The position numbers and the translations under genes were made by a program. 64,000 nucleotides of DNA, from positions 62,001-126,000 of the forward strand of contig JYFJ02000741.1 of the NCBI GenBank assembly GCA_000934665.2. The letters run 5' to 3'. The notes below the pieces were generated by a model. It worked only from the letters and a program-made list of their open reading frames with translations, was not told where the DNA came from and searched no databases. Of the stretch, positions 9,001-59,900 are shown piece after piece. The stretch comes from Catajapyx aquilonaris. Taxonomy: Eukaryota. How positions within the stretch are numbered: the stretch's first letter is position 1; the number at the start of each line of letters is the position of its first letter.

Positions 9001-11086
9001 GTTTTAGCGGTGATAGAAGAGCCTTCACAGAGTAAGGGAATTTCAGGGAGGAAGCAACGGGGCGAAGTGGTGGCAACTTTTCGCATTAGTGCCCACCTAA
9101 CTTCTGGTGCTGCTAATTAGGCTTCTTTAAAGCCTCCAGATAAACAGGGCGAATGTGAATGAGCGCAAGAGTATACACCATGGAAGACTCGTGTAACATA
9201 TATATATTTCGGGAGCCAGGGTTGCTTGAACTTATAAAATTTGATGCTTTTTTCGGGTCGTATCCGAATAACGGCGGTTTGATGATGTGTGAGAGAATTC
9301 TCTGGAGTCTCCAGGGCACGAGTCGAACCCCGGATAGAAAAGCGAGTTGTTTTTACGTCTCCAGAAATGCAAGATTCAATCGGAATGGAGAATGCAAAAA
9401 AAACTATCCCCTGTGCCGGCATTCTGGGAAATCAGGAAGAGATCCAATTTCAGCAGAGGTCGAGAGCTTTTTGCTTTCCTGGAGTTCAAAATGTGACAAG
9501 GAAGTGTGTCCCCTGGATATTTTGCATTATTTGTGACACCGCAGTGTACCCGGGTTCACCTCCCATTCACACACGGACTGAAATTTGCAGCAGGTTTGGC
9601 AGTAATCGTGCCATCAACATCAATTCATTATAATGGTTGCCATGTGGTGTGACCATCCAAAATGTACATTCAAAAAAATATATGTAGTTGAACAAATCAA
9701 AATAATGTTCCATTTTTTGTGATTGATTCCATGCATTTAATGGCGGTCACAAACGGCTTCTCCTATAATGGCGGTTTTTCCGATGAAGAATCGGCCCTCA
9801 TCTTTGTTGCTTGTCCAACATCAGGCAACCTCAGCATTCTGGGGTTAGTGCACGCCCAATTTATCTGTAATGGTAAAGTCGATAACGTGGTGCGATTTGT
9901 GGGGGGATGTAGTTTAATTAGTCTGATTCCTCATTGTCAACTCTAACGCGAATTGATTCATCGCGGACACTTTTTTCCAACATGGTGTGATCCAAATTTT
10001 TCCACCTGTTGGGAGTAACTTCAGCTGAAATCAGGACACGTAGGCATTTCGTGACGAATTGATTGAGCTTCCTAAAGGCAGCCGCAATTCCAAAAAAAAA
10101 TCTGACTGGAAATTGTTACCTTACGACGCCTTTTTTGAGGCAGGATTTCCAGTCTGGCGCCGATCCCGAAGGAATCCAAAGAGGCTTATTTCCTTCGTCC
10201 GATGTAGCCAAAAGAAGACGTGACACGTGGTAGTAATTTTTCGCGATTTTGCCAGTTTTTTTTCTCCTCCCAAAAATTATCGTCCGCTTTTTATCTCTCT
10301 ACGGGCGCTGTCTTGATGATAGCGTGTGGCAATGGGTTTTCTAGTTAGCCCCGTTAAATGAGACAGCTGATTTACAACGTGCCCGCAAGAAAAGTGCTCA
10401 TTAAGACCCCCCTCAGACTTTGCGGATTTTATAGCTGCAGGTGTACATTAAACGGAGATAAAGACGAATAAGAGACTTTCCATGCATTTGGGAAACATGA
10501 GCCCTAATAAGTGCTTCGTTTGATCACCTTAAGGCGATAGCATTTTTAGGTAAAGGGAAAAGTACAAACTTGCTGAATTCAGCCTGGTGTACATAACTGG
10601 GTTTGTTCTTTTGAAATGAATTGCAGTCCACCTATATGTCTCCAGCGGCCCGAAATATTGGTTTCATGGTCCACTTTATTCTCGAATTGAAGGCCCCTTT
10701 TTTTAGAAAGGCAACATTGAGAGGAGATTTTCCGTATATGGACAAAAAAAAACTGAGAGGGCGGTTAGTGGCTATAGGAAACTCCTAAAGCAAGCCGAGC
10801 CTGGCCTGACCGTGATGGAATTCGGAGAGTCGTAGTCGGTTGGAAAATGCGGGACTTGAAGGTCCGAGCGTGGCAAGCATGGCTATCCTGTTATGGATAC
10901 AACCTGCATTCGCCATGGCGAGTTTAGCCGCTGATGAGTCTGCTGTGATACCTACATACAGAAGCAAAAGCGTCTGGTCGAATCTGCTCGTCCTTTGTGC
11001 ATTTTTCACGATTTTCTCATAAGGAAATAATGTCAATTTGTGAAAATAGGGGTATGATGCGCTTTGATCGTCTCTAATTTGAATTA

Positions 11087-11335
11087 AGGTGAAGTGGGGT
11101 AAGTGCATACACGGGGTAAGTGCATACACGGGGTAAGTGCATGCACGGGGTAAGTGCATAAACTGGCCTCCATATCGGAATGAAAGTGGCTGACATGCTC
11201 ACCTCTTGTGGGGATGTGATATGCAGCTACACAAAAGAGTGCCTGACGTGCTTTGGTGTCGTCAGTCATTTTCATTCCAATATGGCGGCCCCGTGTATTC
11301 ACTTACCCCGTGTATGCACTTACCCTACTTCACCT
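11087..11335. mobile_element. Non-autonomous TIR DNA transposon (MITE/foldback-like), 249 bp, with modular TIRs
   Basis: Left end TA|AGGTGAAGT then 4 copies of the 17-mer GGGGTAAGTGCATACAC (11096-11163). Right end has 2 inverted copies of the 17-mer then ACTTCACCT|TA. An inner 30-bp arm GGCCTCCATATCGGAATGAAAGTGGCTGAC matches the reverse complement of 11261-11290 at 26/30. TA flanks both ends (11085-86, 11336-37). No coding capacity. Confidence 0.9.
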
Positions 11336-14300
11336 TATATTATATATAAGTGTCCCATAAATTATTGGTCGTCATTAAAATTACTAGAAATTGGGATTGA
11401 TAACATAGTGGATGATATAACGGTTTGCATGCATGCCTTTCCATTACAAGCCATTGAGTTAACACTGTACAGTATTTCATAGGCTGACATTGTCAAGTAG
11501 TTTTATCCGCTTCACTCTCTAGGAATGATACTGTTGAAAAATTAATTTGTTAAATGCTCGATTAGCATGTATCAGTGGTCTGAACAACCCTTCACTAGAG
11601 GGTAGGCTAATCACTCCCGAACCCTAAAAGCACTCACACCAACAAAACGTGCATAATGACTCCAAACAGCACCTGAATTTGAAAGAAATCGGCCCATGCA
11701 ACCTTGGAATGCCTTAAATGCCATCAACATGTGCCTGAAGGACCATAAACGATTCCTCCCCCAAAGTTAGACTCTCCAACGGGATTTAAACTTTTGAGAG
11801 TCGCCATTGCGGCCAGGCCTCCACTCTTGAACAACGCACCTTTTCCCTCCAAACTAAACCGCTGGGTCCAAAACGAACGAAGAGAAAGAGGGCTAAGCAG
11901 AGCTGCGGACCCACCCCCGCAATTACCAAATCAGTTTGGCAGCGATTCTGTTAAGTGGATCGGTCTGGTGCGAGAAAAGCGAGTCCCCTCCCCAAAAGAA
12001 GCGGGCGATTTGAATGCGAATGAGTCCCCAAGCTTGGGTAGGAGCTACGGAGGCTTCAGGTCCCTTCAGAGTCGTTGAGTTGCGGCCCAGGAGCCAAGGA
12101 AAATGTTGCGTCAAAAGAAACCGCTCCCAAAGGTGCTCTTCTCCGCTTTGGGAGAGAAGGAGGCAAACTGTATACAGGAAGGGGAAAAAAACTGTACCTT
12201 GCACCAAGGCAGATGAATAGGCGGCCGGGGATAATGAACACACTTTGGGTTTTTAGGATTAATGGCGGGGCATCCCTCCGGTGCTTAATTGGTGCTTGGG
12301 ACAGACCAAATGGCACTAATTAAAAGGCGCGGGGTTATAGTGCTTTCCGATTTGCCAGTTGGGAAGAAACTGCCACCTCAGACAATGCTAGTGGTCGTTT
12401 TGCTAACTATATGTCAAGGCAGGAGGTGAAAATATTTTTAAACAAAAGTCGTTAGTCAGCAACAATTCAACAACTGATGATTTCGCCACCACAGGGTCTG
12501 CCCATAAAAACATTATTAAAAAGCGCGAAATTGGCAGCAAATCAAATTATCGTTTACATTGTAGAGTAACTGCAGGGGCAAGTGCCTGAAAATGATTTTG
12601 TTTTGCAAATGTTCCGGGATTAACCTCGATTTTGAATCAAGCCTTCATAAAACGGGGTTTGATAGGTTGACTGCAGCAAATATTTTCCGTTGCCGCAAAT
12701 CCGATTTGATCTCGTCATGAATGGTTACCGTGAAACCATTACTAATAAGCATAATTCATGTAGCGTAATTGGGCCTCTGGTGGTACCCGATTTTGTCAGC
12801 GTTGTACATAATAATAATAATGGAGCCACCCAAAAATTTCACTTCACGCTGGGAGCGATGTATTCTCTCTACACTAGGTGGAAAGAGTTACTCTTTACAT
12901 GCTAGATCCTGTCAGTACTCATGTAACATAGAATTGACTAGGCGAGACTGTGTCTATCCACGGTGACCGATCATCAACGTGCATGTAGCACTACTTTCCA
13001 CCTGAGAGCGGCAGTAGTGTACAGAGCCTGGGCGCCACCTGTTAGTGTCATTTCGTACTACATCCAAGTGGGGCAGTATTGCCAAGTTTTGTAATGAGGG
13101 ACAAAATAATTGTATTATGGCTGCAAATGAATGTGTACGAGCGATATAGTACATAACAAAGCGTATGGCTTTGCATAGCATTGGGTGGTAAACGGGGCAA
13201 GGTTCAAACTTAATGGTCCTGATATTCGGTGTACATACCGTACATAACACCGAGCCTTCCCCCAGTGGCACCATTTGTCAAAGGGCCGCAGTCAAGTGGC
13301 GGCCTCGCTAGATAGAGAGCGAGCCAACCGAGCTATCTCCCAAGAATGTGATTGAATCGTGTGAACTACCCCGGATGTTTTGGATGGGGCGGAGGGGGCG
13401 CGTTGCCGCCAGATTACCGCCCCCCACTTGGGCCCCCCCACGACTCATTTTCCTTCTCCCGGAAGCCCCTCGCAGCTTAATCTCCTTTGCGCTTCCGTGC
13501 CCCCTCGCAACATTTTATTTTTTAAACTGAAACCAGTAATGTTGTCGGGTAATGGCGGCCTAGGCGCAGCTGAGACAGGGTCTCCCAATTTGTGTTTTAA
13601 AGGTTCCTACACGCAAATATTGTCACTATCCCGGCCAAGCTTAGGACTCGGATAGGGCTTTACCCAGAATCGACCAGGAGACAAGCCCAAATGAGAGGCC
13701 CTTGTTTTTTTGGGATGGGAGTAAAGGCTCTTTAAGGTTTTAATTATCGCTAAACTAATTTACAGCCTCGGGTAATGAAGGGTTGGCGGGAAAATGTGGT
13801 CCTGATGCGATCGTGACATACGACAGGCTTTCGGCTGGAATGGACCTGAAGCTGAGGTTGAACACTGCTAGAACTGGATAAGAACTTAATGAAAGCCAAA
13901 AGTACAGGGTGTGGCAGAACTCTGTCGTTGGCAATAAAAGAAAACCTTGAGTGCTTGTGAAATAAGTGCGGCCAAGACCTTTCGTAGAGTGGTACAAACA
14001 GTGTATATCGGATTGGTGAATGGTCCAACCCATCTCCTGGAGATGACGACCACTCCAGGAAAGATTCTTCCATTTGAGCAGCCGCATTTCTCTTTTATGG
14101 GGAGCGTGTCAGAAGGAAGGCCACGTGGAGCACTTCAGATTGTGGCTATGGCTCTTGGAAGAAGAAGAAAAAAATGGCGACTGAAAAAAATAGCGGTGCG
14201 ATTGGCAGCGTTATCTGCTTGCTGATCCGTGACCACAATGGAGTGCCGATGGCTCAAGCTTTGCACATAATGACCAGGGAGGATTTTCAACCGAGGAAGA

Positions 14301-17300
14301 ATTTGATGACCACTCTGGTCCTCTGAGGGTTACAGGACAGGAAGGAAATTGAGCGGGGGAAGAGGTGAAGGGAGAAAAGCCCTGGCGCTTTTTTAAAAAA
14401 AGAGTTTTTTGGGGTGTCATCAACGTGCCGCACTTGAGCAAGGAATGTCGTTATTGTCTATGGAGAAGGATAAAATAATATCTATTTCGGAGGGTGCTGG
14501 AGGAAAAGTGCTGCAGCCGGCTTTTGGAGAGAGTATTACAGAGGCGTAAGTGTCTAAGTTAAGATGACTCGCTAAAATACGAGGTAGCCATATAGACTTG
14601 AGTCTAAAGTGCGCTGCGAGTGCGAAAGAAGTTGTTAATGGCTTTTGTTCACTTTGTGAAATCAGAGTTTCTCCTCATCACAGCCGACACACAAAAACTG
14701 GTCACCGCAACAACAGGTTGACACCATTTCATTCAAAAACTGTAATTACTTTTTTCTGTGCAGACATGTCAAATGCAAAAGTACTTGGCATTTGCGCGCA
14801 ACATATCACATAACGCAGCTTGATAATTTTGATGTCATTACAATTTGCTGTTCAATGAATCTAATATGAGCACGAAGGCTTTGCACAGCGGCTGTGGGCT
14901 GCTTAACTTGTGTGTTCATTGCTTTTCATCGTACTGTTAAAAGCGTCATTAGCTGGAGTTACTATCATGAGCTCAAAATAATCTGGGATTTAACTTTCCC
15001 ACGCGCATTATTATTTATCCATAGTTTTGCAAAAACCTCTACTTATTGTGTGCGCTTCAAAACATGCAGTGAGCCCATCCTAAGTCTGGTTATATTTTAT
15101 TTATTTCCTTCTCGCAAACCCACCTAGCAGACTTTTATTGTGAGTGGGCGTGCATGGTTTCAGTCGTCCCCATTGGCCACTTGCCTTGATTTATAGACCC
15201 TCTTGCTGCCCCAGAAAATTTACGATTGCTGGTCCAAGGAGGGTCATTTCAGTAATATGCAACCCACTCATCGCACCTTCGAACCGAACCCTATGAGTAG
15301 AGAGGCCCATATGCAACTCAAGATGCTTTTCCTTGCTTCCCCCCCAAAAATGAGGGCTAAAAAATGATCCATGGCCAAATTACCTGCCTCTCTCCATAAA
15401 GCAACCGACGCTTGTTCCTTGTCATCAAAACATTATTACACCTAAGAGGAGTAGACGGATAAGATGGGGGAAGGATGGCTTATAAATGTCTTAATTCTGA
15501 AGGCCTTGCAAGATTGCATGCTTGGCAGAGGCAGCCGAGGCCGTTACGCCTCTAAATTACCGTCACTTAGGGCAGATTTGGGCGTGGGTCCACATGTAAT
15601 CCGTTCTCTTAGGCGGGCCGGAAAATTCATTGGTGTTGGGAACCTACGTAGGAGAAGTCTGTTTAATCCTTTTCATCACTGTGCAAGGGTCACCTTGTAA
15701 GGTGTCAACACTGCACAATTTTTTTGGCACTGGAGACAAACTTTTTTAGGTTTCAAAATTTTGAGTAATCCGTGGGGGTAACACATGAACAGTACATGAT
15801 CCGGCCAGTTGTTGAACATGTGTGCGATGTGTGTGGGGAAGGGTGCTGCAGGCGCTGGCATTATTATTCATGCATCCTGCTTCATCCAGGGGTTTTCCGA
15901 AATGCCTGGGACATAGTTGGAGAGAGAGCAGGGTTCATTCCAAAATGCGGAGGGAATCCATTAATGCAGCGGGTGCATCATAATCAATATCATCTCATAT
16001 TTTGCAGCGGCCCGAGTGAGGCAACTGTTGATGATGCAGATGACATGCGATCTGTTCTGGCGATAGTCGATGCTTGTTTTAGTAGCCCTGAATAATACAG
16101 GCCTTTCATGCCAAAGTTGGTAGGCTACGTACAGGATGTTTCATAACAATGCAGAAGCTTGGATCATTACGGAGCACCCAGTGCCCACGATTTTCTGAGC
16201 CTACCTTTCTAAATTAAACCCACCTTTGTTCTTAGTCCTTTGTGCTTGAAACTGGCGCAAGTCCCTAGTATGTGTGCGTGAGGCTGAATTCTAAAGTTCA
16301 GAGAATTTTAGCGAATTAAAATTGCAGACTCGCCATAGAGCCAAAGAGCCGCTACATTTGGCCCATTACAACGTCAAGTTACAGGAGCGTGGCAAAAGAA
16401 GTGCTCCAGCATTGCATTTCGGGGGCCGCCGACTGGCTTAACGTTCATTAGCGGTCAACGGTCCGGATGCACCGGATCTCTGGAGACATTCGCCTCAGCA
16501 CATTTATGCATAATTCTGACTATTCCCCACACGGGAAATAGAATCAGTTTTTTTTGCCGAAATGCGGGGAGTAACTGGCGGTTGTTGCGAATCCGCATTT
16601 TTGTTTGATTCCGGGAGAATAGAGAGATGGGAAAGTTTTTACTGCCATAATGTATTGATGGAATTGGACCCCATCTTGGATGCTGGAGCGGTGTATATAT
16701 GCCGCTATGGGATCTCGTAAAAGAAGTGTCTCTTTCCTCGGGGCTGCTTGGAAGGACTGCCAATGAATGGAAATGCACTCGGAGTTAGAATTACAGATTT
16801 CGCCACAACCTGAGAGGCAGAAATTTTTGCTTTGTTTTACTTTACCGTCTGGCGGCAAAGGGGGGGGGGAAACGCTTGGTTTGCTGTGTGGACTCTTTTT
16901 TTCCTATTTTTTTCGGAAAAAGTAACTAGTGTAAATGTATGCTAGCTAGTGCTTTCCGTTGGGGTTGGCCAAGTTGGCTAGGGCTCAGCTGTACGGGGCA
17001 GGTGTTGAATTGACAAGGGAGTTCTTTGGAGAGGAAAAACAAGGAATGGCTTTCTTGAAGGCTCTCTTCATCTTCCCGATCTCGTTTTCTCTGGGGCGAA
17101 AGGTTACGGGGATTATTTTCGACGGATTGTAATTTGCTTCTGAGACTTCAAAAGATGAGCTTGGGAAGAAGGAGGTATAATTATTTAATTTATGGAGTCT
17201 GAGGCGTACCACCGGAGACTAATCCGAATAATTATGGCACATTATTTTGAAGCAGAATGTAGCCAATATTTTGACCTAAGAATAACCCGCAGTGAAATAA

Positions 17301-29092: not shown

Positions 29093-31885
29093 TGCACTGG
29101 ATCCTCCAGTATAAAATTTATAGGCAGGTAACAGTACTAAATTGGGTCCCTTGAAGGTTCCTTGGTAATGAGAAGTGAGACTGACAACAATCCCAATTAG
29201 AATCGCATCGGGTTTGTCACCCTCATTTCCCGCTGCCCACTGAGCAAAGGTCTACTCCAATCACGCCAGTCTTGGTTCAGAACAGTGACAAGTTTGCTTC
29301 GGATAAAACCTGATTTTTCACCCAATAATAAATTGCGTTATGTTATCGCGACCTATTAAGGTTGAGTCCTCTCTTAACTACTGGAGGGGATGTCCTTACA
29401 TCGTGGATTACATCTGAGCACACGACGGTTTAAGTAAACGTACAAAAGCCCACCCGCGGTGATTTACACGAGCCTAAACTTAACGCGTGGGAAAAGGAAG
29501 AATAAAACCACCTGTTGTGTGGTAGGCAGATTTGGCGTCCCATTGAGGCAAGTGCAGCTTGGACCCGCCCTATATCCCCCTGATATATGGATATGGAGTG
29601 AGACATGGCACAAGGAGGAGTGAATAGAGCTCCTGGCTCGAATTGGGGCTATGCCAGGGCTCAATTCTATGGCTTCGTTCTGGCGGAATGTGCTAGGCCC
29701 CTGAGTCTAGGGAAAGGGGGAGGGGGGAAAAAGGGGGAGGTCTGCCTTACCCTATTTTCACACCTTTTTTGAGAAGAGGGGCGTGGGGGACTTCTCAAAA
29801 CGGGAAGAATGGGATGGAATATATAGTGTGGAGAAATTCCTTGCCTCCTGAGAGATGAAAAGTAGTGGAGATTTTGCATGCAACCCTGGGATTTGGGAGG
29901 GGAATCGTCTCACGAAAGATCTGTACACACGTCGTGCTGTGTGCTAAAAGTATCGATTGTTTGCTGGAGAAGAGTACAAATTGATGCTGAAAATGTGAAG
30001 ATCTAAAAGATATGAGGGCTTAGTACACTCTTCCTCAAATCTGAATAAAGATGTTTCATGCGAATTGGCGGAATTAAAACCGCAACACAAAAGTTTGGTC
30101 TGGTTCAAATAAGTGGGTGCAACTGCAGCTGGAGGAATAAGAAGAAGCCTTCCCCGCAATGACTAATTGGCTCGTGAAATGGAGATTTAGGGAGACGGAT
30201 AAGAAAAGGACGAGAAGAGAAGGAGGAGGGAGAAATTTGCATTCAAGTCGTCGCCAGACTCTTCTACTTTCTGCTGCTGCATCTAGAATAAATGGCATCC
30301 ACCAAGGAAAATTTTAGCATGAGCTTGATATACGAGCGGGTATTTCCCTCGCGGCGACAAATTCTATTAACATGGCCATGACATGTTTACGGCTCAAACG
30401 GTCGCGGTCATATTAATGCCGAATAAAGTTGAATATTTTCTGATCCAACCTGAACAGTAACAGGTCTGCAACTGTATAAAGTGTGCACTCTACACACCTC
30501 GAGATAATCCCTTACCCTTTCAAGATAGACTTGTTTATAGCGCTAGTCCTATCAGATCCAACAATTCCTACTCGATAGCGTCGGATCATTAATACCGACT
30601 CCTTCGGGCTCGTTTGGGACAAAAGCTTGTTAATTCTAAGTCGTAAACCGGATTACGATAAGGGTCCCCATTATTGGAATCGACACCGTTGTCAGAAGAG
30701 CGATCGTTGTCTTCTCTAGCAACAAAAGCAAGTGTGGCGGGCCCCAGCACTCTGCCGGTATAAAGATTCTTCCAGTGGAAACCTGATTAATCCAGGGCAG
30801 GACTCGAGTTTTTTTCGGTACCAGCCCGAACCCAATGTCCCGTAAAAGCCAGCCAGATGCTATTACGACCAAATCTTCATCAAAGTGTCGCCCTGCCGCA
30901 TGTTACAAGCTTAAAGATGGTCCCCGAACTTTCAGAATGGCAATGTGGGGACCCAAAATTGCGGTTAACTTTATTTCCACGACGCGCTCGGGAGAAATTT
31001 ATGCCATGAAACATGCAGCCAAATGATTTTACCCAGAATTTTATTGGCCTTTAGTGTAACTAAACTAGTTATGCGGATGAAATGAAGCAAGAATTCGATT
31101 ACCTGTACTATAAATCAGTGAGAAAAAAATCGGGGCTCAAAGTGCGTTAATGACTCTCTCTCTCTTTCCCTTCCCTCCCTTGTGCCTTTGTAACATTTCC
31201 TCTCATTCATCGTCTTAGTAATGCAATTCGGCTTCTTGGAGCTAACTGATAAAATGCGTTTATGGAGCATTTAGTAAGATTGAATTACGCAAGGCCTCGA
31301 TATCGTCGAAGCTCGCCTAATACGCTTTCCAGGTAATGCTGCCATCCGCACTTCCGCCTGCAAATTGAATTCTTTGGAAATAAAAAAATGGAGAGACTGA
31401 AAAGGGAATTACCAAGCACAGGAAGTCAAAAACCGAGTCATTCTTTCCTTTCTAGGGAAGGAGTTTTTTTGAGCGACAGACAGTGAAAGAGTCTTTCAAC
31501 ATGGAAACCAAGACGTCGAGTAACGTCGAGATTGCTATCTGGGGGAAGGTCTTGCGCTGCTCCATCGTGCGGATCGGGAGAAATTTTCAGGAGAGTTGGA
31601 GGCATATATGGATAGAAATCGTATTGTCGATAGTGAAGCCTGGAGGGAGACAGAGGCATCATTATAAAAATAGGGAAAGGCACATAGGCTTGTGCAGTAA
31701 AAGGAGCTTTACTTACCTGCAACGATACCGACTGATCATGCAACACACAATAATTGGAAGGTCCATGTACAAAAAGTACGCATATTACAGGCCACTGAGA
31801 TGCCAATAATGACTGCGTATCGTGCTAATAGTGCTAATTGCAATAGGAGCCTGCTGTTATGATGAGTAATCTACCATCCTTTTTA

Positions 31886-35947: not shown

Positions 35948-36328
35948 CCTTACCATTCAAGGTTTGGGTGCCGGGCGTATACAGCCAGGGTTCAAAAGGC
36001 GTGTCGGGGGATTGACTTATCAGCATCCAAAGAAATGCGCGTTTTTGACCCTATGCGACTCACTTTTTTTACACCCCCTTTCCGAGCGTTTTTGAGAGAA
36101 TTGGTGCGTATTTTTGGCTTTACGAACTACTTTTTCACTCCGGCGAGCACGTAACATTAATATTCGCTGGCGCTGAGATATTCACAACTCATCCTCTCAG
36201 TCAGCACCGCTCCTTTTTTGAAGCTGGAAGATTCACTCTTGCGAATTCTTTAAAGATGTTCACGAACGCCATGAAAGAAAAATGTTCACCAATTTCTCAG
36301 CAAAGAAGAATAAGTGCCCCTGCTCACA

Positions 36329-36392
36329 CCTAACCTAACCTAACCCTATCCCTAACCGAAACTAACCTAACCTAACTCTAACCCAACCAACC
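36329..36392. repeat. Degenerate (CCTAA/CCCTAA)n telomere-like tract
   Basis: Reads cctaa cctaa cctaa ccctat ccctaa ccgaa actaa cctaa cctaa ctctaa cccaa ccaa, about 12 units. Flanked by the direct repeat GCCC(C/A)TGCTCACA at 36316-36328 and 36393-36405. Confidence 0.8.
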
Positions 36393-42300: not shown

Positions 42301-45145
42301 TCATTTTCTAATCGTGTCAATTTGACAGTATTTTTGACACAATGATTATAGTTGGTGATTTTGTATTCCTATAATAATTCTCGTCAGTCATTGTTGTGAT
42401 GTCAAATACATTATGACACATACCTTACGTGAGCTCTCCTGAAGAATGAATGAATATAAAATCACGGGTGCCAGATTAAGTTATTCTCCGCTACGACGAA
42501 CGATCCAAACCCTTCAAAATGTTGAAAAAAAATTGCGGGAGACATATGGTTAAGAATATAATGAAGGTGTGCATACATGGGCCAGGTTGTCATTTATTAT
42601 TCATGTTTACCCTTGCGAACGAATTCATAATGAGTTGCTTGATATGCACATCAAATTGTGTGGTAGCCTGGAGCCGAGTAGAAAATCTTGTTTGCGATTC
42701 CGTGCTATAGACACGGCTTTGCAGACTCCCCGTCCTCCCCCACCCATCCCCCTGACAAACTACTGCACTGGGCGAATTACCCGCGTGGAAAGTTGCGTGA
42801 ACTTTGTCTGAATGCAGCAGGTGTTGTGCAGTAGGTGGCAGGGAAATCGGCGAGACCAACAATTCCGTGTTCCCACTGAATGGACCCCCGGAATTCAAAC
42901 TGCAAACGTCGCCTCCGCAAAATTTCTGTGGACGTAGCCTGCTGGAGATGAAACTTGGAAGCAAATCCGGTGGGCCAATTGTGAAAGGCTCGTGCGTAAG
43001 CTCCTTGGAGGAAACTTAAGGGAAAGACGCGCAAAGTGCTAAAGAGCGCTCGCCTAATTCCCATTTGCGACTTCAGCTCCAAGAGACACCCACATTCCCC
43101 TCTTTACTGATAAGAGCAGTCCGTTTCCAGCTTAACATCCGCTGCAGGTAACGACATGGATGATATCTAATCGGATTATGGTGGTCTAAGCCCGCCTCTG
43201 CCATTTCCGATATATGCGTCCAGAAAGCGAATCTAGTCTTCAGGAACATTTCGCCAAACCTCACCAAAAAAGGGGCAGAACTGGTGGGAACTAATTTGGG
43301 AGCATGTTCCGGGATTTACTTGCAGGGAGTTTCCGGGGGGATGAAACTCTCCTTTTTCGCCCCCCCCCCTCCCCCCACTCTCTTGCCAAGGACTTTTTCT
43401 GGTGAATTATTCAATGGGAAATGCGGGCGGAATTGGCGCGGTTGGAGTGCAAGCGCGAAATTTTGCCCGCGGGTAGGAAATAGGCAAAGTTGAGCGAAGT
43501 TGTCTCTTTTTGTGAAGTACCGATTTTCATAAACCATTGGTTGGCCTTTAAAAAAAACAGGCTTTGATCTTATGTTATTATTTAGCAGGTTAATGAACTA
43601 TGGTTTAATTTCCTGGAAGGTCAGGGGGTTTTTTTCGCAAAAGGCTAGGGTCCGGTGCGGGTGATTAATTGGGCCTATATATCAACTCGTGCCTAGGATC
43701 CAATTTCGACACCCCTCTTTACATTTGCCAATTGAGATGCGGAACAAGTACCCCGAGCGCGCTTTTACTGCTCCGCGTGTGTACTTTGCGGTTTTCAGTC
43801 ACGGAGCGCTGCGCAATCATTGCCGCTAATTCCAGCTGCAGAGGCACTAATCATGAGGTATAGCCGAGTGTAATCGTTCCAAAGAGATAACATTTGGGTG
43901 CGAAAAAAAAGTGCGAACTGACTAGTGTACTTCCGGGGGTGTCCTTTCGTGCAGTAAGCATTGATCGGACGGGCGACTTACTGGAGAAGACGTGATCGGA
44001 TTAGGAAAGAAGCACTGTCGGATATACTAAGACTGTGCTGTAATGAAAGTCGGCACCAAGATGGAACAAGCTGGTATCATTTAGTGTTACTTCAAGTCAC
44101 TTAACTGTTCACGCATATTTATGAGTGAAAAAGTCGTAAAATATCGCGTACAGAGTAAGCAGCATTATTTCATCTCCGAATTTCTGAAAAATTGTCGGAA
44201 TTTTATGAAGTTGAAGCGTATTTCCAAGTGTGTCCATTGTCAGGGGCAAAAACCTCTGGACGATTCAGTTCTCTGCTAATTAATGAACCCTGAGCAGGTT
44301 CCCTTGGTGGTGTATGCAACCGGTTGCTCACTTTTGTTCCCATACTTATGCAGTGGAGGATAGTCGTCTGGGGGATAACTGACACACGTCAGAATCCATT
44401 TGGAAAAGGACCCAGTTGGAAAACCCTGTGGGACCTTGCTTCCTATCGACATGCAGCTGCGGTTCGCTTCCGAAGTGTTGAAAGAACTTGGGAAGCTGGA
44501 TTTACTGCGATTGGTGCCGTACGCAGGCGGATCACATTCGGTTCCAATTTGCTATTAAGAGAATTACTGCAACGTTTTTGCAATAAAATATAGCAACAAG
44601 TATGGCATGGCCTGGAGCCATGATTTCAGTAATTTTATCATACGTGTGATAGGTGGAAATCCAACCCGGGACAATGTTACGTCGCTTCCTGTCGGTTTGT
44701 TCGAAAAGAGGCATATCCGTTGGGGAATCGCGGTGTTTATCCGATATAGGATTTCATTGGATGTGGTGTGCTGGGCAGATTCATAATGGAGGTTCAGTCC
44801 ATTTTGGGGATGTAAAGTGTTTGTTTTGCGGGATGGGGAAGGTTTTCGCAAATTTAACATTTAAAAAGGGCAATACGCTGATGACAGCTGTTGAAAGAAT
44901 CACGAAGCGATATTTCCCACAGGGGAACGGATTTGTTTGAGAAATAACTCTGCAATACACTTTCAGATCAATTAGCTCTTGTTTTACCAAACACAAACAA
45001 AATGTGGGCATTTCTTTGCTATGTAAAACGCACACACTTCCATTGTTCGCCAACATTTGCTCAGCTTTCTGGGCGGCTGAATAATTTTACATGATGCATT
45101 GCTAGCATGAAATTATCACGGTAGTAATAATTATACAGAGCACTG

Positions 45146-45239
45146 TGTAATGTTCCTGTTCCATTTCAGGTATGTGGATCGTTGGAAAGGTAGAGAAAGA
45201 GCCTCGACTGTGTAAGCTACGCCAACAGGTAGCGTAAGT
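45146..45239 (+). other. Candidate recursive splice site (ratchet point) with cryptic RP-exon
   Basis: TGTAAT-GTTCCTGTTCCATTTCAG|GTATGT, with AG at 45168-69 and GT at 45170. Downstream donors: GTAAGC (45212), CAG|GTAGCG (45229) and GTAAGT (45234). Confidence 0.55.
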
Positions 45240-48200
45240 GGAGCGTTTCTTTATTGCCACCCCGAGGTGCAATGTATGCACTTCAGTTAATTGCCTTTCG
45301 GGGAGGGTTGAGCGTCCTGGATGACCCTATTTGACCTTCCAAAATTGCATCCTGGACCTATAACGCAATTACTCCAGTGGAAAGGTCCGTTCTACTATAT
45401 TTCTGTCCGTGTCTATTCGCCTATTTTTTTCTCTAGCATTCCCACTCAGCGGAAGCATAACAGGACGCTATTAAACTGCGTCCAAGTCCATTTCCAGCTT
45501 TACGAGTAGTAAAAATCACTGGGAAAAGGCGGCCAGCCTGTAACATGGACTGTGCGGAAGGACTATTGGGAAAATTTGGCCGAAATGTGTCGTCGGAATA
45601 AAAACGGAGGCGGGGGGAGGGTGGGGGCATGACAACTATCGATCAGAGGCCTTCAAATCAATGCAACAAATACAGCTTGGCGATGTAGCTGCTCCTGTTG
45701 GCGATGGGCCAAAACTCTAGGAAAACAATTGCAGGAAGATCAGTTTTTTCTTTCTTTTCTTCTAAAAAAAATCACCGCCATTAACCTTCGAGGTTTATCG
45801 CCAGCACAAGCCTTCTAACCGTAATGAAGTAGGGGGGACAGCCATATTTAAAAATGCGATAAAGGAAGATTATTGCCCGCTTTATTAGGAACTGAAGAAG
45901 GAATTAAAACGGGGAAAATGAACGTGAATGGAAAATAACAGATGGGCATAAAGCCGCCTTTTTTATGGAAGAAAATGGAATATTTAACCGCTTTTCCAAT
46001 GCCCCGAGTCCGGCTGTATCACCCAGCACATAAATCCTTGGGGGGTGCGAAAACAGTTATTTTTTGGCAAAATGCAACGACCAGTTTTTTAAAAAAGTCG
46101 GGGTTATAATTCCTCTGTGTTTCTATCCCCTGCTCTATTTCCAAGGGGATTTTCGGCGCGGACTCTGGCTTGCATCTCATTTGTTCTCCTCTGTCGTTTG
46201 ATTCAATACGCCCGGCGAATACTGTATTAGCGTGTCTTTTATATTCCCCTTCGGAGGACATTCCGCAGCTTTTGCGGATCGTTGCAGTGGACCTGAACTG
46301 CATTTGGGAGGACATGCACTATACGGAAAGAAAATTTAATTTCAGTTCCATGTACTGAAAGTTTTGATGTAGAATCATGTGGCTGTTTTAATCTGGAGGA
46401 ATCGAGGGCCCCCGTACCTCCTGATAATTAAAACATAGGTAATATTGTTCGTTGATGACGAGCCAGAGAGATTGGGAGTACTCGACTAGGATTTCATTAG
46501 GAATTAGACAGCGCACCTAAGGGCGATAAAGTACGGACAAGCACCACCCCCATTGCATTTTACAAAACCGGATAATTCCTCCCTGTAGTCCATAGGCCTC
46601 TTAATGCTTTATGTATCTCGTCCTCTTAGCCCACACGTCATTAACCAAACGAGATTGTGGCGTCGGCCCAGAATTGTGAATGATTACTCTCTGGGAAAAC
46701 ATATCCGGAAGGGGGCCTGGGTTGAAGTTATACGGGTTCATTTATGGACATGAGGGGGCTAGTGTTTGGACAGTGCGAGCGATTAGAGAGGTTTCGGAAT
46801 TGACTGCAAATCGTGGCAGGGCGTCGATGCGCTTGCTTTTGTGCTGTTCATCTGGGCGGATTCAATTGGCCGAGGCGACTCAACCGTGGCAGTGTTGCCC
46901 AGGTTCGGATCTCCTGACCTCGATTAATTCGGCGGTAATGAGATGCGCTGAGGGGGTTTCTTGCTCACAGACAGGTGAGAGATCGGTTTCTGCGGTTTAG
47001 GATCGACGCAAGGTTTATTTTTCAAGCCCGGACCTGATTGGAAGTCAGGCCTATAGTGGGGGTGCTGACACAGGTTGATTTTAATGAGACGCCTCGTTAT
47101 TTAAAGAAAGTTGCTGTGAAGTGTGTTCCTGCGGAAAAATATTTGTTAAAAATGAACATTTCAAGTAGAAAAACATTGCTCAAAATTGCATCACTGGTCA
47201 TGTTTTAACTCAAATTAGCCCTATTATTCGGTATATAGGAACCTAGTCTGAGGTCATCACAACTGAAAACTGATGGAATTACTACCCTTTATGGACACGA
47301 ATGAAAGTGGATTGTCCCCTAAATTTTTGTGTCATACAACTATAAGGCTCGTCACTCATGAAAATTGTCATGCATTCGGGAGAATGTGCAGTCATCCCGC
47401 TGCATTTTTGCAGAATGTTCCACACTTTCGCCGGAAGTGTTGGACATTATCAGTCGTGCATAAACTTAATATGGCAACTTAATGCCGGGCATGCACTGAA
47501 CAGCAATAGTAACTACTTATTTTACAAGTGCTCGACTTTTGTACTTTAGCAGATTTTAACGCAACAATATATTATGCATTATAGCGTCGTTTTGAGGATC
47601 ATCTCATAGCCACACATTTGCATGGATATACTGTAGTATTATATTTGAGCTTCTATACCTTGGAGCAGTTTAATTCCTTTAAACAATTACAGTACAGTAT
47701 CTGGCCCACTTTTTCTAAATCGCCTGCCAAGTATACGGCATGGTGAACAAGAGAGGCTCATAGGTTAGCGAAGTGCCAGGATGAAGCGAAACTTCAGGGG
47801 ATTTTTCTTCAACCTTGAGTAGCGCTTACTCAGGAAGCAATCTCCGTGCATATATAAACATTGCATTTTTTTAGCTGAAACTGCGCTCGAGGGTCCCTCC
47901 AAAAAATTCTTCAGATGAAATGGAAGATGAATGTTCAAGACGGAGGAAAAACCTGCCAATCAGCGCGAAAGGCTTACGTGCAAAACAAGGCGAGAATTGT
48001 GCAGAAATATTTCTTGAATTGGTTCCAATTTCAGGTGATCCTTCCAAAAGGTTTAATCACTGTTTCAGGAACTAGATCATCCTCATAAATCACTACTTTT
48101 TTGAACTCTCTTAATATTCCTGGCGTCGTCCCTGTTTACACACAGAAATAGATCTTATATCTCAAGCCAGTAAACTTGGTTCCGATGTGTAGAGAGAAAA

Positions 48201-48992: not shown

Positions 48993-49166
48993 AGAGAATA
49001 ATGACAGGGAGGCCAGTACTTTTTTGTGTTGCGTTTGGTGCCCTCTCTTCAATGCGGGCCTTTCCCCCCCCCCCTATCNAGAGAATAATGACAGGGAGGC
49101 CAGTACTTTTTTGTGTTGCGTTTGGTGCCCTCTCTTCAATGCGGGCCTTTCCCCCCCCCCCCTATC
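48993..49166. repeat. 86/87-bp direct duplication flanking an N, probably an assembly overlap artefact
   Basis: 48993-49078 and 49080-49166 are identical except for poly-C length (11 vs 12). A single N at 49079 separates them. Confidence 0.9.
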
Positions 49167-56148: not shown

Positions 56149-56874
56149 ATAATACTGTACTACCTGCGACGCTGAATCAGGGAACATGCCAGAAATTGTA
56201 TTTAGAATGGGCTCAAGTGAGGAGAGATTTGAGCTGAAACACCGGGTGTGCAATCCTCTTTGGTGTTTCGGGGGCTATTATCTCCTGCTTGGCCATTCAG
56301 GTAGTAGGAGTGTTGGTCGCATTGCTTATTCATTTGCGATAATTAAGGCGTACTCCTCCCTTTACTCGTGTCCCTGCTGCATTTCAAGAACAGGTACAAG
56401 AAAGTCTGTGGTAATTTTGCGGAAAATACTCGAATAGACAAAATCAAATGCATTTTTGCAGCACACTGTTTGATTACTATTATTATTATTGCCAGCAGAA
56501 AAACAAGTCGATTATTATGAAGTGGAGCTCCAATATTTAGTATTAGCCAATTTCAATAATCATATATTTACCATTCCATGTTATGTGATGACAGTGAATG
56601 ATGCGATGATAATTTAATCACAACGAAAATGAATATTTTGTGGCACAGATCAAGCATACTACGACCTCCGCTATTTAATTTGCATAATTGTTATAATAAA
56701 TTAGTTAATTAACTCTTTACTTGAAAGTGCCAGTGGCTGTATATCTGTAGCATACAGTTTACGCTTAAAAATTGTTCACGCCCAGTTCATTCTTGTTCAG
56801 AATTAAACTGAATGAAAAGTCGTATACCATTTGTTTGCTAATTTGCAATGCATGTGATGTTTTCGCCCATTTAT

Positions 56875-56961
56875 TGATTAACCTGCGCCTTGTTTTTGTC
56901 ACTTTTACAGGTAAGTATTGAATTATTAAAATGGCCAGAGGTGCATGATTTAAGGGTAAGT
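56875..56961 (+). other. Candidate recursive splice site (ratchet point) with 45-nt cryptic RP-exon
   Basis: Branch-like TGATTAAC (56875-82), then pyrimidine tract CCTTGTTTTTGTCACTTTTA, then CAG|GTAAGT (AG 56909-10, GT 56911). No AG dinucleotide from 56820 to 56908. A second perfect donor, GG|GTAAGT, at 56956. Confidence 0.7.
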
Positions 56962-59900
56962 TCAGGCTGGCACGTAAATAATTCACCTATCCTCGCACAA
57001 GATGCAGAGAATCTGAAAACCACGCCTGTGAACCGATGTCTCAAGAGCTCAGTAGGAGTAGCACCTAACATTATTGGAAGGCTCTCGTTTGATGTTGGCA
57101 GGATTTTGCGAAAGAGGTAGCTATAGTGTGGTGTATCCTGGTTTGGTGATGAAGCCCGGTGGCGTGCGTTTCGATCAGGATAGAGACTGCGGTGGTGCAC
57201 AAAGCTATAGGAAAAGTACAGGGTGCGGCGAGAGTAATCAGGCTTTGGAAATCACTGCTCTCCCACAGGATTCCTGAGGCTTATCTGTGCCTGACCAGAC
57301 AGGCCTCTTCATCTCTTTTCCCTTTCCAACACCTCCTGGATAAAAAAGGAGAGGGTTCCTGCTATTGCAAAGCTTAACCGGTCGTTAAGATCGGCAAGCC
57401 TGAAAAGTTTGAGCTAAATTGCTCAACAGTGGAACTTAATGAAGTCTTCGGATTGTGCTCAAGGCACTAAATATACACATTTTTGGGCCTCTCTCCGGAT
57501 TTGTCTGTGCTTAAGGAACGTGTTAACTTAAACTCAGCTTAATTGCACCTTGAGTCTGGTCCGAAAAAGAATCCCAATTTGCTGTGCAAAGATCCACGTA
57601 CTTTTTTGCATGTCGACTGTGCCTACATTCCTTTCCCGAAGCTTCCGCCGAAATCAGCAGGACATTTCAGTCGGATAATGAGTCCGGAGCTTTAATTCGA
57701 AATTTAAGAAGTTCGCCTTTCATTTCCTGGCTAACGATCTCCCTGTTGAGCTATTTCAACAAGCCTGCAATCATTCGTCTTCTTTTTCCGGACCCAGAGC
57801 AGGGGCAAAAAAGAGAGCTACATTCCGGAAAAAAGGGACGTTCATAAATTATTCTCAACCCTGTTTGTGACCAACCCCTTTGGAATTTACAATATATCGT
57901 TTTGTCAATTGGCTCGATCATATACGGAATGGTTAATATAGATTTGAAAATTCAAAATAATTGTTTCAAGGCTAGCAGCAGATTTTAGTTGCATTGCAAG
58001 AAAAACTGGTTGAACGGGATAGCCAGTTTGTGTACCTAGGTATAGGTTCGATGATGATAATCTTGCACCTTAAGACAGTTTTTTGACATATTTTTGATTA
58101 ATCATCACCGCATCTGAATTTGATATGAAACAGCGACCAACTTGTCAATTTGCATTTCTGCATCCATTCCGTAAACCGGTTCAAAAAAAATAAACAAAAG
58201 TCGCGTTTTAGGCCCCAAATTGAACCAGTAATCGCGCAGTTATGAACAGGGCGCGCGGCCAGAAACCCCCGCGAATTAATTTGCGAAAATAATGCTGTTA
58301 GTCGGCCGCGCCAATACCCGGGCCCCGACACGCCATCTGCTAGTTTAGTGGGCCCAACCAGCACATGTGAAGCCGCAACCATGTCAGCACCGACTGAATA
58401 ATTCCTCCTGGCCTGCGAAAGACAACCAAGAGGGTACGCCACTTCATACAAAACAAGACACTGCGAAAATCACGCAGACTAATGCAATTTTCGGAGCTCT
58501 TGGAAAACGGCTACAAATTTTGCACAGCTCTCAGAGATTTAAGCCGCGGATGGAAAACACCTCTTAACAACAAAGAGACGTAAATCAAACGGTTAAAAGC
58601 ACCAGCAGTAAATCACGGATTAACCGTCCACTTAATAGCATTAAAAAGGAAGCGTTAGTCTAGGGCGTCAGGAGCGTGTCATGGCCGCTTGATATGAAAT
58701 ATTTCAACACCTCCCGCGGCATAAATTCATCGGCTGCAACTTTGCATGGGACACAAAGTGCGCTAAGCACTTTTCCCTGCGACCCTACCCTGAATCTGAT
58801 GGCGACAAATAAAATTAGAACCCCCTGTGTCCCGGTTCATTTATCAGCGTCAGACCCCGGTAAAATTTAGTGTACTGCTGCAAATTGCACAGTCCCGTGT
58901 GATTGTCGCTCAGCCCCCCCTTTTTTTATCCGGGCTACCCTTTTCACTCCGGGGGTTTTGCAACTTGCCGAATTCCAACTTGTCAGTCGTTTGAGCCTAA
59001 AGCGTGAAAATGGCTCATTCCAACATTTTTTGCCCAGGTGAGTCGCACCTGAAAAGGTTCGTCGTTTCTCTTCCACACTACTCCGGATTCCTGATCCGGA
59101 TTTCTGGCTTTGTGTGGCGACCCGGTCCTTGCAGAAGCACTTGGAGGTTAGAGAAAGTGAGGAATCCGGGGCTGACAAAATTATGCGGTTCATTTGGCAT
59201 CTAGTGGTGGCCTGTAGATTATTATCCTGTACTCTAGGGGTCGGACTGTCGCCTTATACTTTCTCCGGTCTCAGTTGGGGACCGAAAAAAATGGTAGAGA
59301 GAAAATGGTTTTTGATTGCTCGTTTCATATTTCATGGGGGATGGTGCGGAAGAAAACGACCGGTCTGATCTTCGTCTGGTGGCATGGAACCAAGTAAACG
59401 ATGGAGATCGATGTTGCCTCCCTAGAGCCAAACCTGAATTTTCTGTACAGGAAAAACTTTCAGAAAGTACTGATGGAGCTTTCCGGTATTTAGGGTGCCT
59501 AGACGGTGATCAGAGCCAGAAAATGCCCAACAAAAATAGTGAGCAGAAAACCACTAAAAATTAGCCCATACTCTATAGTATGCCTAGTGTCCTATACTGT
59601 ATATAGGACGGTTGTCCCTCCAAAAAATTACAGTATTTTTAAAAAATTAATAAAAACACATTTTAAATTCTTCAGAGAGTAATATGGCAAAATATTCAAT
59701 TTCACATTATTATGAATTTTTTCATCTTGCTTGACATTAGATCGATTGATTGAACTATTTTCAGGAAGTGGGAAGTTTCGAGCCTCGCCACCGAAAAAAG
59801 AGCGTTAACTATTCTAGGGCCCGGGTGAGAATTTAGGGAACATTGAGATTCATTGCCCCCTGGAAGTAGCAGCTGCAGCTTCCTCTCGGACAAGAACGGG

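Follow-up and report, generated by a model that had tools for sequence, protein, structure and literature searches.

Our results point to a candidate recursive-splicing (RS) site of the Drosophila type in a 64,000-nucleotide stretch of the forward strand of Catajapyx aquilonaris contig JYFJ02000741.1 (positions 62,001 to 126,000), hereafter the window, which is numbered from its first letter. At this candidate, which occupies 56820-56961 of the + strand, a 3′ splice site directly abuts a 5′ splice site, and a second 5′ splice site follows 45 nt downstream. We favour the interpretation that the element is a used recursive-splicing unit, in which zero-nucleotide use would be the default outcome, and assign to it a rough probability of 0.45. 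One assumption of this interpretation, carried over from the original prediction, is that the whole window belongs to a giant intron of the + strand.

The elements of the candidate were read directly off the + strand (56500-57300) and re-indexed by script, and their identity and positions are established. The acceptor AG (56909-56910) is preceded by an AG-free zone, or AG-exclusion zone, of 89 nt (56820-56908), with the nearest AG on its 5′ side at 56818-56819; a zone of at least this length lies ahead of 19 of the 3787 + strand AGs in the window. This upstream region is T-rich, with 41 T in 91 nt (56820-56910). It contains a branch-point-like TTAAC (56878-56882), recognised by the motif YTNAY only, which places a candidate branch A at 56881, or -30 relative to the junction, and an alternative YTNAY, TTGAT, with its A at 56877 (-34). 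No AG separates either motif from the acceptor, and both are motif evidence of a common kind, a YTNAY being similarly placed (A at -21 to -36) at 90 of 376 TTNYAG sites. The pyrimidine tract and acceptor follow at 56891-56910, where positions -20 to -5 read TGTTTTTGTCACTTTT, with 13 pyrimidines in 16 positions and purines at -19, -13 and -10, and where TT (-6/-5), A (-4), C (-3) and the AG complete the acceptor. The GTAAGT of the ratchet-point donor (56911-56916) abuts this AG, giving the juxtaposed core CAG|GTAAGTAT at 56908-56918.

A further GTAAGT (56956-56961), in the context AGG|GTAAGTTC, is the candidate definer of a putative RS-exon, cryptic or expressed, of 45 nt (56911-56955), a length that is a multiple of three. 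The two donors are identical at +1 to +6, and the downstream one has G at -2, while positions -3 to -1 of the regenerated site would come from the upstream exon and not from the context of 56911. Outside a foldback repeat at 11085-11337, 56911/56956 is the only pair of GTAAGT hexamers in the window that lie no more than 100 nt apart. Within the window the site is single-copy, and it is not flanked by terminal inverted repeats. All five elements named in the original prediction (the AG-free zone, TTAAC, the tract, CAG|GTAAGT and the second GTAAGT at +45) were found where it had placed them. Its aside that the first frame of the 45-nt unit contains TAA was mistaken, for frame 1 (VSIELLKWPEVHDLR) is stop-free, the TAA closes frame 2 and a TGA closes frame 3.

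This arrangement agrees in detail with ratchet points described in Drosophila, for which the reported consensus is (y)nncag|gtaagt (PMC2773006); those of kuz, Bx, Ubx-RP, luna and pum share with the candidate an abutting acceptor and donor of the form (Y)n N CAG|GTAAGT. TT at -5/-6 is present in 196 of 197 fly ratchet points versus 44% of all introns, mapped Drosophila recursive branch points fall at -36 to -21 with a peak at -30 and are mostly A, and the introns that host fly ratchet points span 11-133 kb (Duff et al., 10.1101/006163). The candidate resembles them in its TT at -6/-5 and in its branch-like A at -30, two features that can be added to those on which the ratchet-point interpretation originally relied and that make the motif stronger than had been claimed. 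The cryptic RS-exons of flies are described as units of about 50 nt with their own downstream donor (Joseph & Lai, PMC8605326), and the 45-nt unit closed by a consensus donor is of the same kind. At the level of sequence, the candidate appears to agree with what has been published for the fly in its core, TT, branch position and RS-exon. The S1 table of Pai et al., which holds 539 fly candidate sites, contains AGGTAAGT in 37 of them, AGGTGAGT in 51 and AGGTATGT in 34, and the exact 12-mer TTACAGGTAAGT (TTACAG|GTAAGT) in 3. Fly ratchet points differ in how they are known, namely from junction reads, saw-tooth coverage, lariats and conservation, whereas the candidate is known from sequence alone. 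Conservation is described as the best discriminator between true ratchet points and the remaining AG|GT sites (10.1101/006163, PMC6110457), real fly sites being about twice as conserved as control AGGT motifs (PMC6110457).

The rarity of the combination was estimated with Markov models of order 1-3 trained on the 64-kb window, with expectations per 128 kb (both strands), and by simulation of 9000 third-order windows. The core 9-mer CAGGTAAGT has an expectation of 0.29-0.38 and occurs once per strand, in line with the earlier concession that it could arise by chance in 64 kb. Extension to TTNYAG|GTAAGT lowers the expectation to 0.05-0.07 per window, with 446 occurrences across the 9000 simulated windows. 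A context filter (at least 12 of 16 pyrimidines, an AG-exclusion zone of at least 30 nt and a YTNAY A at -21 to -36) was passed by 6 of the 376 TTNYAG sites, the candidate among them, and at least 13 pyrimidines together with an AG-exclusion zone of at least 89 nt were found at 4 of 7448 AGs (both strands). The probability of a downstream donor within 20-100 nt is ∼0.012 for GTAAGT, 0.021 for GTRAGT and 0.089 for GTRAG. Factorisation of these components gives a composite expectation per window of ∼1e-5 (strict) or ∼2e-4 (loose); the simulated windows contained one strict and three loose composites, compatible with a range of 1e-5 to 3e-4. The co-occurrence of the elements, on which the original argument relied, is thus expected ∼1e-5 to 3e-4 times per 64-kb window over both strands.

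These figures are to be read with the caveat that some thresholds were fixed only after the site had been seen. In addition, because of the T-rich patch, tract, TT and AG-free zone are not fully independent of one another, and the branch motif adds little because YTNAY is so frequent at TTNYAG sites. With these reservations, the rarity is established: in any one window such a combination stands out clearly and goes well beyond what chance would give, whereas a scan over hundreds of thousands of them will meet chance cases.

No credible coding sequence was found on either strand of the window, an outcome as compatible with an intergenic desert as with a giant intron. G+C content is 44%, and a CpG observed/expected ratio of 0.80 indicates that the window is not vertebrate-like, while an interstitial repeat of the TTAGG type at 36328-36392 is a weak hint of an arthropod source. 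Pfam searches returned no family for the 25 stop-to-stop open reading frames (ORFs) of at least 120 aa on both strands and a single marginal match among the 426 of 55-119 aa, leaving 450 of the 451 ORFs of at least 55 aa with no family. The marginal match, of ADK_lid to residues 6-29 (...VCDVCGEG...) of a 108-aa + strand ORF at 15769-16092, scored 27.1 bits against a cut-off of 26.6 with no single stretch passing. It was rejected as spurious and is probably a chance match to a Cys-rich stretch, since phmmer matches in the PDB included no adenylate kinase. Across the whole window, Rfam gave no match at gathering scores or at E ≤ 1, the tRNA scan was empty, and 3-base periodicity reached a maximum of 4.42 versus a shuffled maximum of 4.92, hence no exon signal. 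Pairs of donors and acceptors resembling short introns were found once per strand, by a rough estimate from site frequencies no more than chance, and were set aside.

The same holds at the site itself. The 80-aa + strand ORF that runs through it matched nothing in two large protein collections (0 of 52 candidates at E ≤ 0.01) and no Pfam family, and none of seven homology candidates passed for the 126-aa ORF that lies over it on the - strand. A 22-mer around the junction found two loci in metagenome contigs, one aligning over 29 nt (93% identity), the other over 23 nt (100%) and neither any further, which we regard as chance.

If the candidate is used as we propose, U2AF and U2 would engage the CAG acceptor together with its T-rich tract and the branch A near -30, while U1 bound to the 56956 donor, 45 nt downstream, would define the short exon 56911-56955. 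The upstream exon of the long host intron would then be joined to 56911, and ligation would rebuild a strong 5′ splice site, xxx|GTAAGTAT, because the 'exon' begins with GTAAGT. The regenerated site would compete with the downstream donor AGG|GTAAGTTC. Should the regenerated site win, the 45 nt would leave with the remaining intron, as at a zero-nucleotide ratchet point; should it lose, a frame-preserving microexon of 15 codons would be included. For an upstream exon ending in AG, U1 pairing would be 9/9 at the regenerated site versus 8/9 at the downstream one (counted by hand against the consensus). Skipping would thus be favoured only narrowly, and partial inclusion of the microexon is plausible. 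With an open RS-exon that keeps the frame, the two roles, zero-nucleotide ratchet point and optional 15-codon microexon, could fall to a single element. Transcription of the + strand, the intronic location of the site, its use and the outcome of the donor competition are all what we infer here from the layout. We consider it possible, and put it forward tentatively, that a giant intron in a non-model invertebrate far removed from the fly is processed through the same fine architecture, unaltered: TT at -6/-5, an A at -30 as branch point and an RS-exon of ∼45-50 nt defined by a consensus donor of its own.

The weight of this interpretation depends on the prior for a 64-kb exon-free window being a + strand intron, which was taken as 5-20%. 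With that prior, the motif alone gives odds for a real site of between about 1:5 and 3:1. A donor for the RS-exon is what a real site should have and what chance seldom supplies, and it raises these odds several-fold; ambiguous strand skews, equal donor strengths and a tract at the weak end lower them. In Drosophila, at least one high-confidence site is reported in 63% of introns over 40 kb (Pai et al., PMC6110457).

A number of observations count against a used ratchet point. The tract, with 13/16 pyrimidines, falls, as judged by eye, at the weak end of 47 Drosophila high-confidence motifs. The downstream donor equals the ratchet-point donor at +1 to +6, whereas fly ratchet-point donors are usually the stronger and are described as usually outscoring the donor of the RS-exon (PMC8605326). 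The 45-nt unit preserves the frame and has no stop in frame 1, unlike typical cryptic RS-exons of flies, which are reported to be 'generally out of frame' (PMC8605326), and in this it comes closer to the 51-nt microexons of Ubx. The - strand copy of the core, at 31716, has a poor tract, so that strong cores do occur in this window without the full context. The strict composite also arose once in the 9000 simulated windows, and very large scans will yield chance cases. GT and AG dinucleotides are not depleted on the + strand and are slightly commoner there than on the - strand. Finally, G exceeds C on the + strand (mean skew 0.036, 25 of 32 2-kb bins positive), as T exceeds A (mean skew 0.017, 20 of 32 bins), while Drosophila introns have C>G and T>A on the coding strand, the C excess being cited for invertebrates and a G excess for vertebrates (Bergman et al.). 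The two skews thus point to opposite strands when set against the Drosophila pattern, and they were rejected as a guide to the transcribed strand. The asymmetry itself persists across the window (1-64000), with transcription, replication or neither as its cause.

Several of these points are shared by the explanation that the elements came together by chance in DNA that is untranscribed, antisense, or intronic and unused, so that the motif has no function; we regard this as quite possible and as a serious competitor. It is consistent with a core expected 0.29-0.38 times per window and found on both strands, on the - strand with no good tract, and with a T-rich patch that by itself goes some way towards supplying tract, TT and AG-free zone alike. 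The frequency of YTNAY, the single strict composite in simulation, the ambiguous skews, the failure of Pfam and periodicity to reveal exons and the partly post hoc thresholds are all in keeping with it. It has to accommodate, on the other side, a factorised expectation of only ∼1e-5 to ∼2e-4 per window, and the fact that the A at -30, the TT at -6/-5 and the 45-nt unit with a consensus donor match criteria published before the site was seen. It also sits uneasily with the density of such motifs in large invertebrate introns, which is 0.5-2.2 per 100 kb in the sense direction versus 0.07-0.12 on the complementary strand in four of five species, and none on that strand in mosquito (as tabulated in PMC2773006).

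The open frame and the strong splice sites at both ends raise a different explanation, in which the 45 nt are an expressed microexon, either a cassette or constitutive exon or an RS-exon like Ubx mI/mII, that encodes 15 residues in phase 0 and whose GTAAGT start is incidental or regulatory. A length divisible by three and a downstream donor no weaker than that of the ratchet point are what such an exon would display, the 51-nt Ubx microexons with their donor-like GTAAGA start provide a precedent, and expressed RS-exons are put at fewer than 50 in flies and potentially more than 6,400 in mammals (PMC8605326). We nevertheless consider it unlikely: the ORF through the unit matches no protein and no Pfam family in the searches described above, two of the three phases are closed, and, at a hexamer frequency of 1.5e-4 per nt, about one exon in several thousand would be expected to start with GTAAGT by accident, while 15 codons are too short for any coding test. 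An expressed microexon of this type would, mechanistically, still be an RS-type exon. It is very improbable, by our estimate, that CAG|GTAAGT is a plain 5′ splice site ending an upstream, possibly non-coding, exon, with the GTAAGT at +45 nt as an alternative donor and the tract and AG-free zone as accidents of a T-rich exon end. The motif is indeed also a perfect ordinary donor consensus, and ORF tests are blind to non-coding first exons; chance would, however, have to supply the branch motif, the tract with its TT at -6/-5 and an AG-free zone of 89 nt, in a context shared by only 6 of 376 TTNYAG sites, and all three upstream frames are closed inside the AG-free zone (TAA, TGA).

The favoured interpretation, a used recursive-splicing unit, would place the candidate in a class already well described in Drosophila and vertebrates. 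For invertebrates at large, Shepard et al. 2009 (PMC2773006) applied a score threshold of 80% and compared ratchet-point motifs per 100 kb on the sense and complementary strands of introns longer than 50 kb; they report 2.20 versus 0.10 in fly, 1.03 versus 0.00 in mosquito, 0.81 versus 0.10 in beetle, 0.54 versus 0.07 in sea urchin and 0.48 versus 0.12 in bee. In the same tabulation, vertebrates have ∼0.1 on either strand, with no enrichment of ratchet-point sites in large introns. The invertebrate densities imply that most such motifs in a sense-strand giant intron exceed background. An RS site has also been predicted in intron 2 of locust NPF1, with partial support from U2AF65 RNA immunoprecipitation (RIP) (PMC8892266). 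The predictions in sea urchin, mosquito, honey bee, flour beetle and locust are like the present one in being motif-only ratchet points in invertebrates other than Drosophila; they differ in that those of Shepard et al. rest on annotated introns and on sense/antisense enrichment, to which the locust site adds U2AF65 RIP, whereas the present candidate is a motif prediction.

The closest parallels to the 45-nt unit are expressed RS-exons. Ubx mI and mII are 51 nt long and begin with the donor-like GTAAGA (Hatton et al. 1998, as described in PMC8605326 and 10.1101/006163), and they and other expressed RS-exons (Blazquez et al., PMC6224609) are, in the accounts given there, short frame-preserving exons that start with a donor-like hexamer, as does the unit here (45 versus 51 nt). 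In Ubx-type exons, splicing to the exon regenerates a 5′ splice site and donor competition sets inclusion or skipping, and the candidate appears alike in layout. The Ubx microexons are, however, ultraconserved and known in mRNA, while the candidate has no protein match and is so far a feature of the DNA sequence. The RS-exons of long neural genes in vertebrates (Sibley et al. 2015, as described in PMC8605326) are also alike in that a downstream donor defines the exon and the regenerated 5′ splice site then skips it; those systems differ in their hosts, the window being not vertebrate-like in its CpG ratio.

The experimental record of recursive splicing comprises Drosophila and a few vertebrates, and for other invertebrates there are the motif-enrichment statistics of 2009 and the one partly supported locust site. 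In the part of the literature surveyed, no genome-wide experimental catalogue of recursive splicing turned up for a non-dipteran invertebrate. The claim that a case in a non-model invertebrate would be notable holds to the extent that few lineages are documented experimentally, and was overstated given the earlier enrichment across invertebrates and the locust prediction. If the fly architecture does work unaltered at this site, recursive splicing based on exon definition would be ancestral to the long introns of invertebrates and not a dipteran speciality. Validation of a site with all the fly features outside that lineage would demonstrate conservation of the exon-definition mechanism and would provide a concrete locus for reverse transcription PCR (RT-PCR) and minigene work. 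At the level of sequence the candidate is a good one, and its value hinges entirely on RNA evidence.

Three other sites in the window have some of the same elements. The second CAGGTAAGT of the window, TTGCAG|GTAAGT, has its donor G at 31716 on the - strand (31640-31720), with a tract of 9/16 pyrimidines and an AG-free zone of 13 nt. A strong acceptor, TCTGTCTCCCTCCAG|G, lies 77 nt past this donor, and the pair resembles a short - strand intron. A 128-aa - strand ORF (31441-31824) spans the pair, with 3-base periodicity near the 99th percentile. Its only match in an exhaustive search (E 5e-7) was rejected, being one 26-bit alignment of 21% identity repeated over identical ankyrin-type tandem repeats. 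On the + strand, an AG|GT site at 59038 (59009-59045) reads TTTTTTGCCCAG|GTGAGT and has a fair acceptor context, with 12/16 pyrimidines, an AG-free zone of 33 nt and GC, not TT, at -6/-5. Ahead of it lie gaaaATGG and an ORF of nine codons (MAHSNIFCP) after an in-frame TGA, and the site could equally be the donor of a first coding exon, or chance. The + strand site at 45170 (45140-45240) has the same layout with a weaker donor, CCATTTCAG|GTATGT, together with 12/16 pyrimidines, TT at -6/-5 and an AG-free zone of 27 nt; GTAAGC and GTAAGT follow 42 nt and 64 nt downstream, respectively. GTATGT donors are present in 34 of the 539 fly candidate sites in the S1 table of Pai et al.

Repeats account for part of the GTAAGT content of the window. 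The foldback element at 11085-11337 has 49-nt arms that are 96% complementary and 155 nt apart, built from 17-nt tandem units GGGGTAAGTGCATACAC and their complement, and of the GTAAGT hexamers in the window it contributes 4 of 11 on the + strand and 2 of 8 on the - strand. At 48993-49166, an 87-bp unit with a C-run is tandemly duplicated with a 98% match; the N at 49079, one of two in the window, lies inside this duplication and may mark assembly uncertainty. An interstitial CCTAA array at 36328-36392 (period 5, 12.6 copies, 78% matches) has CCCTAA-like units mixed in and is the complement of TTAGG, the arthropod-type telomere unit.

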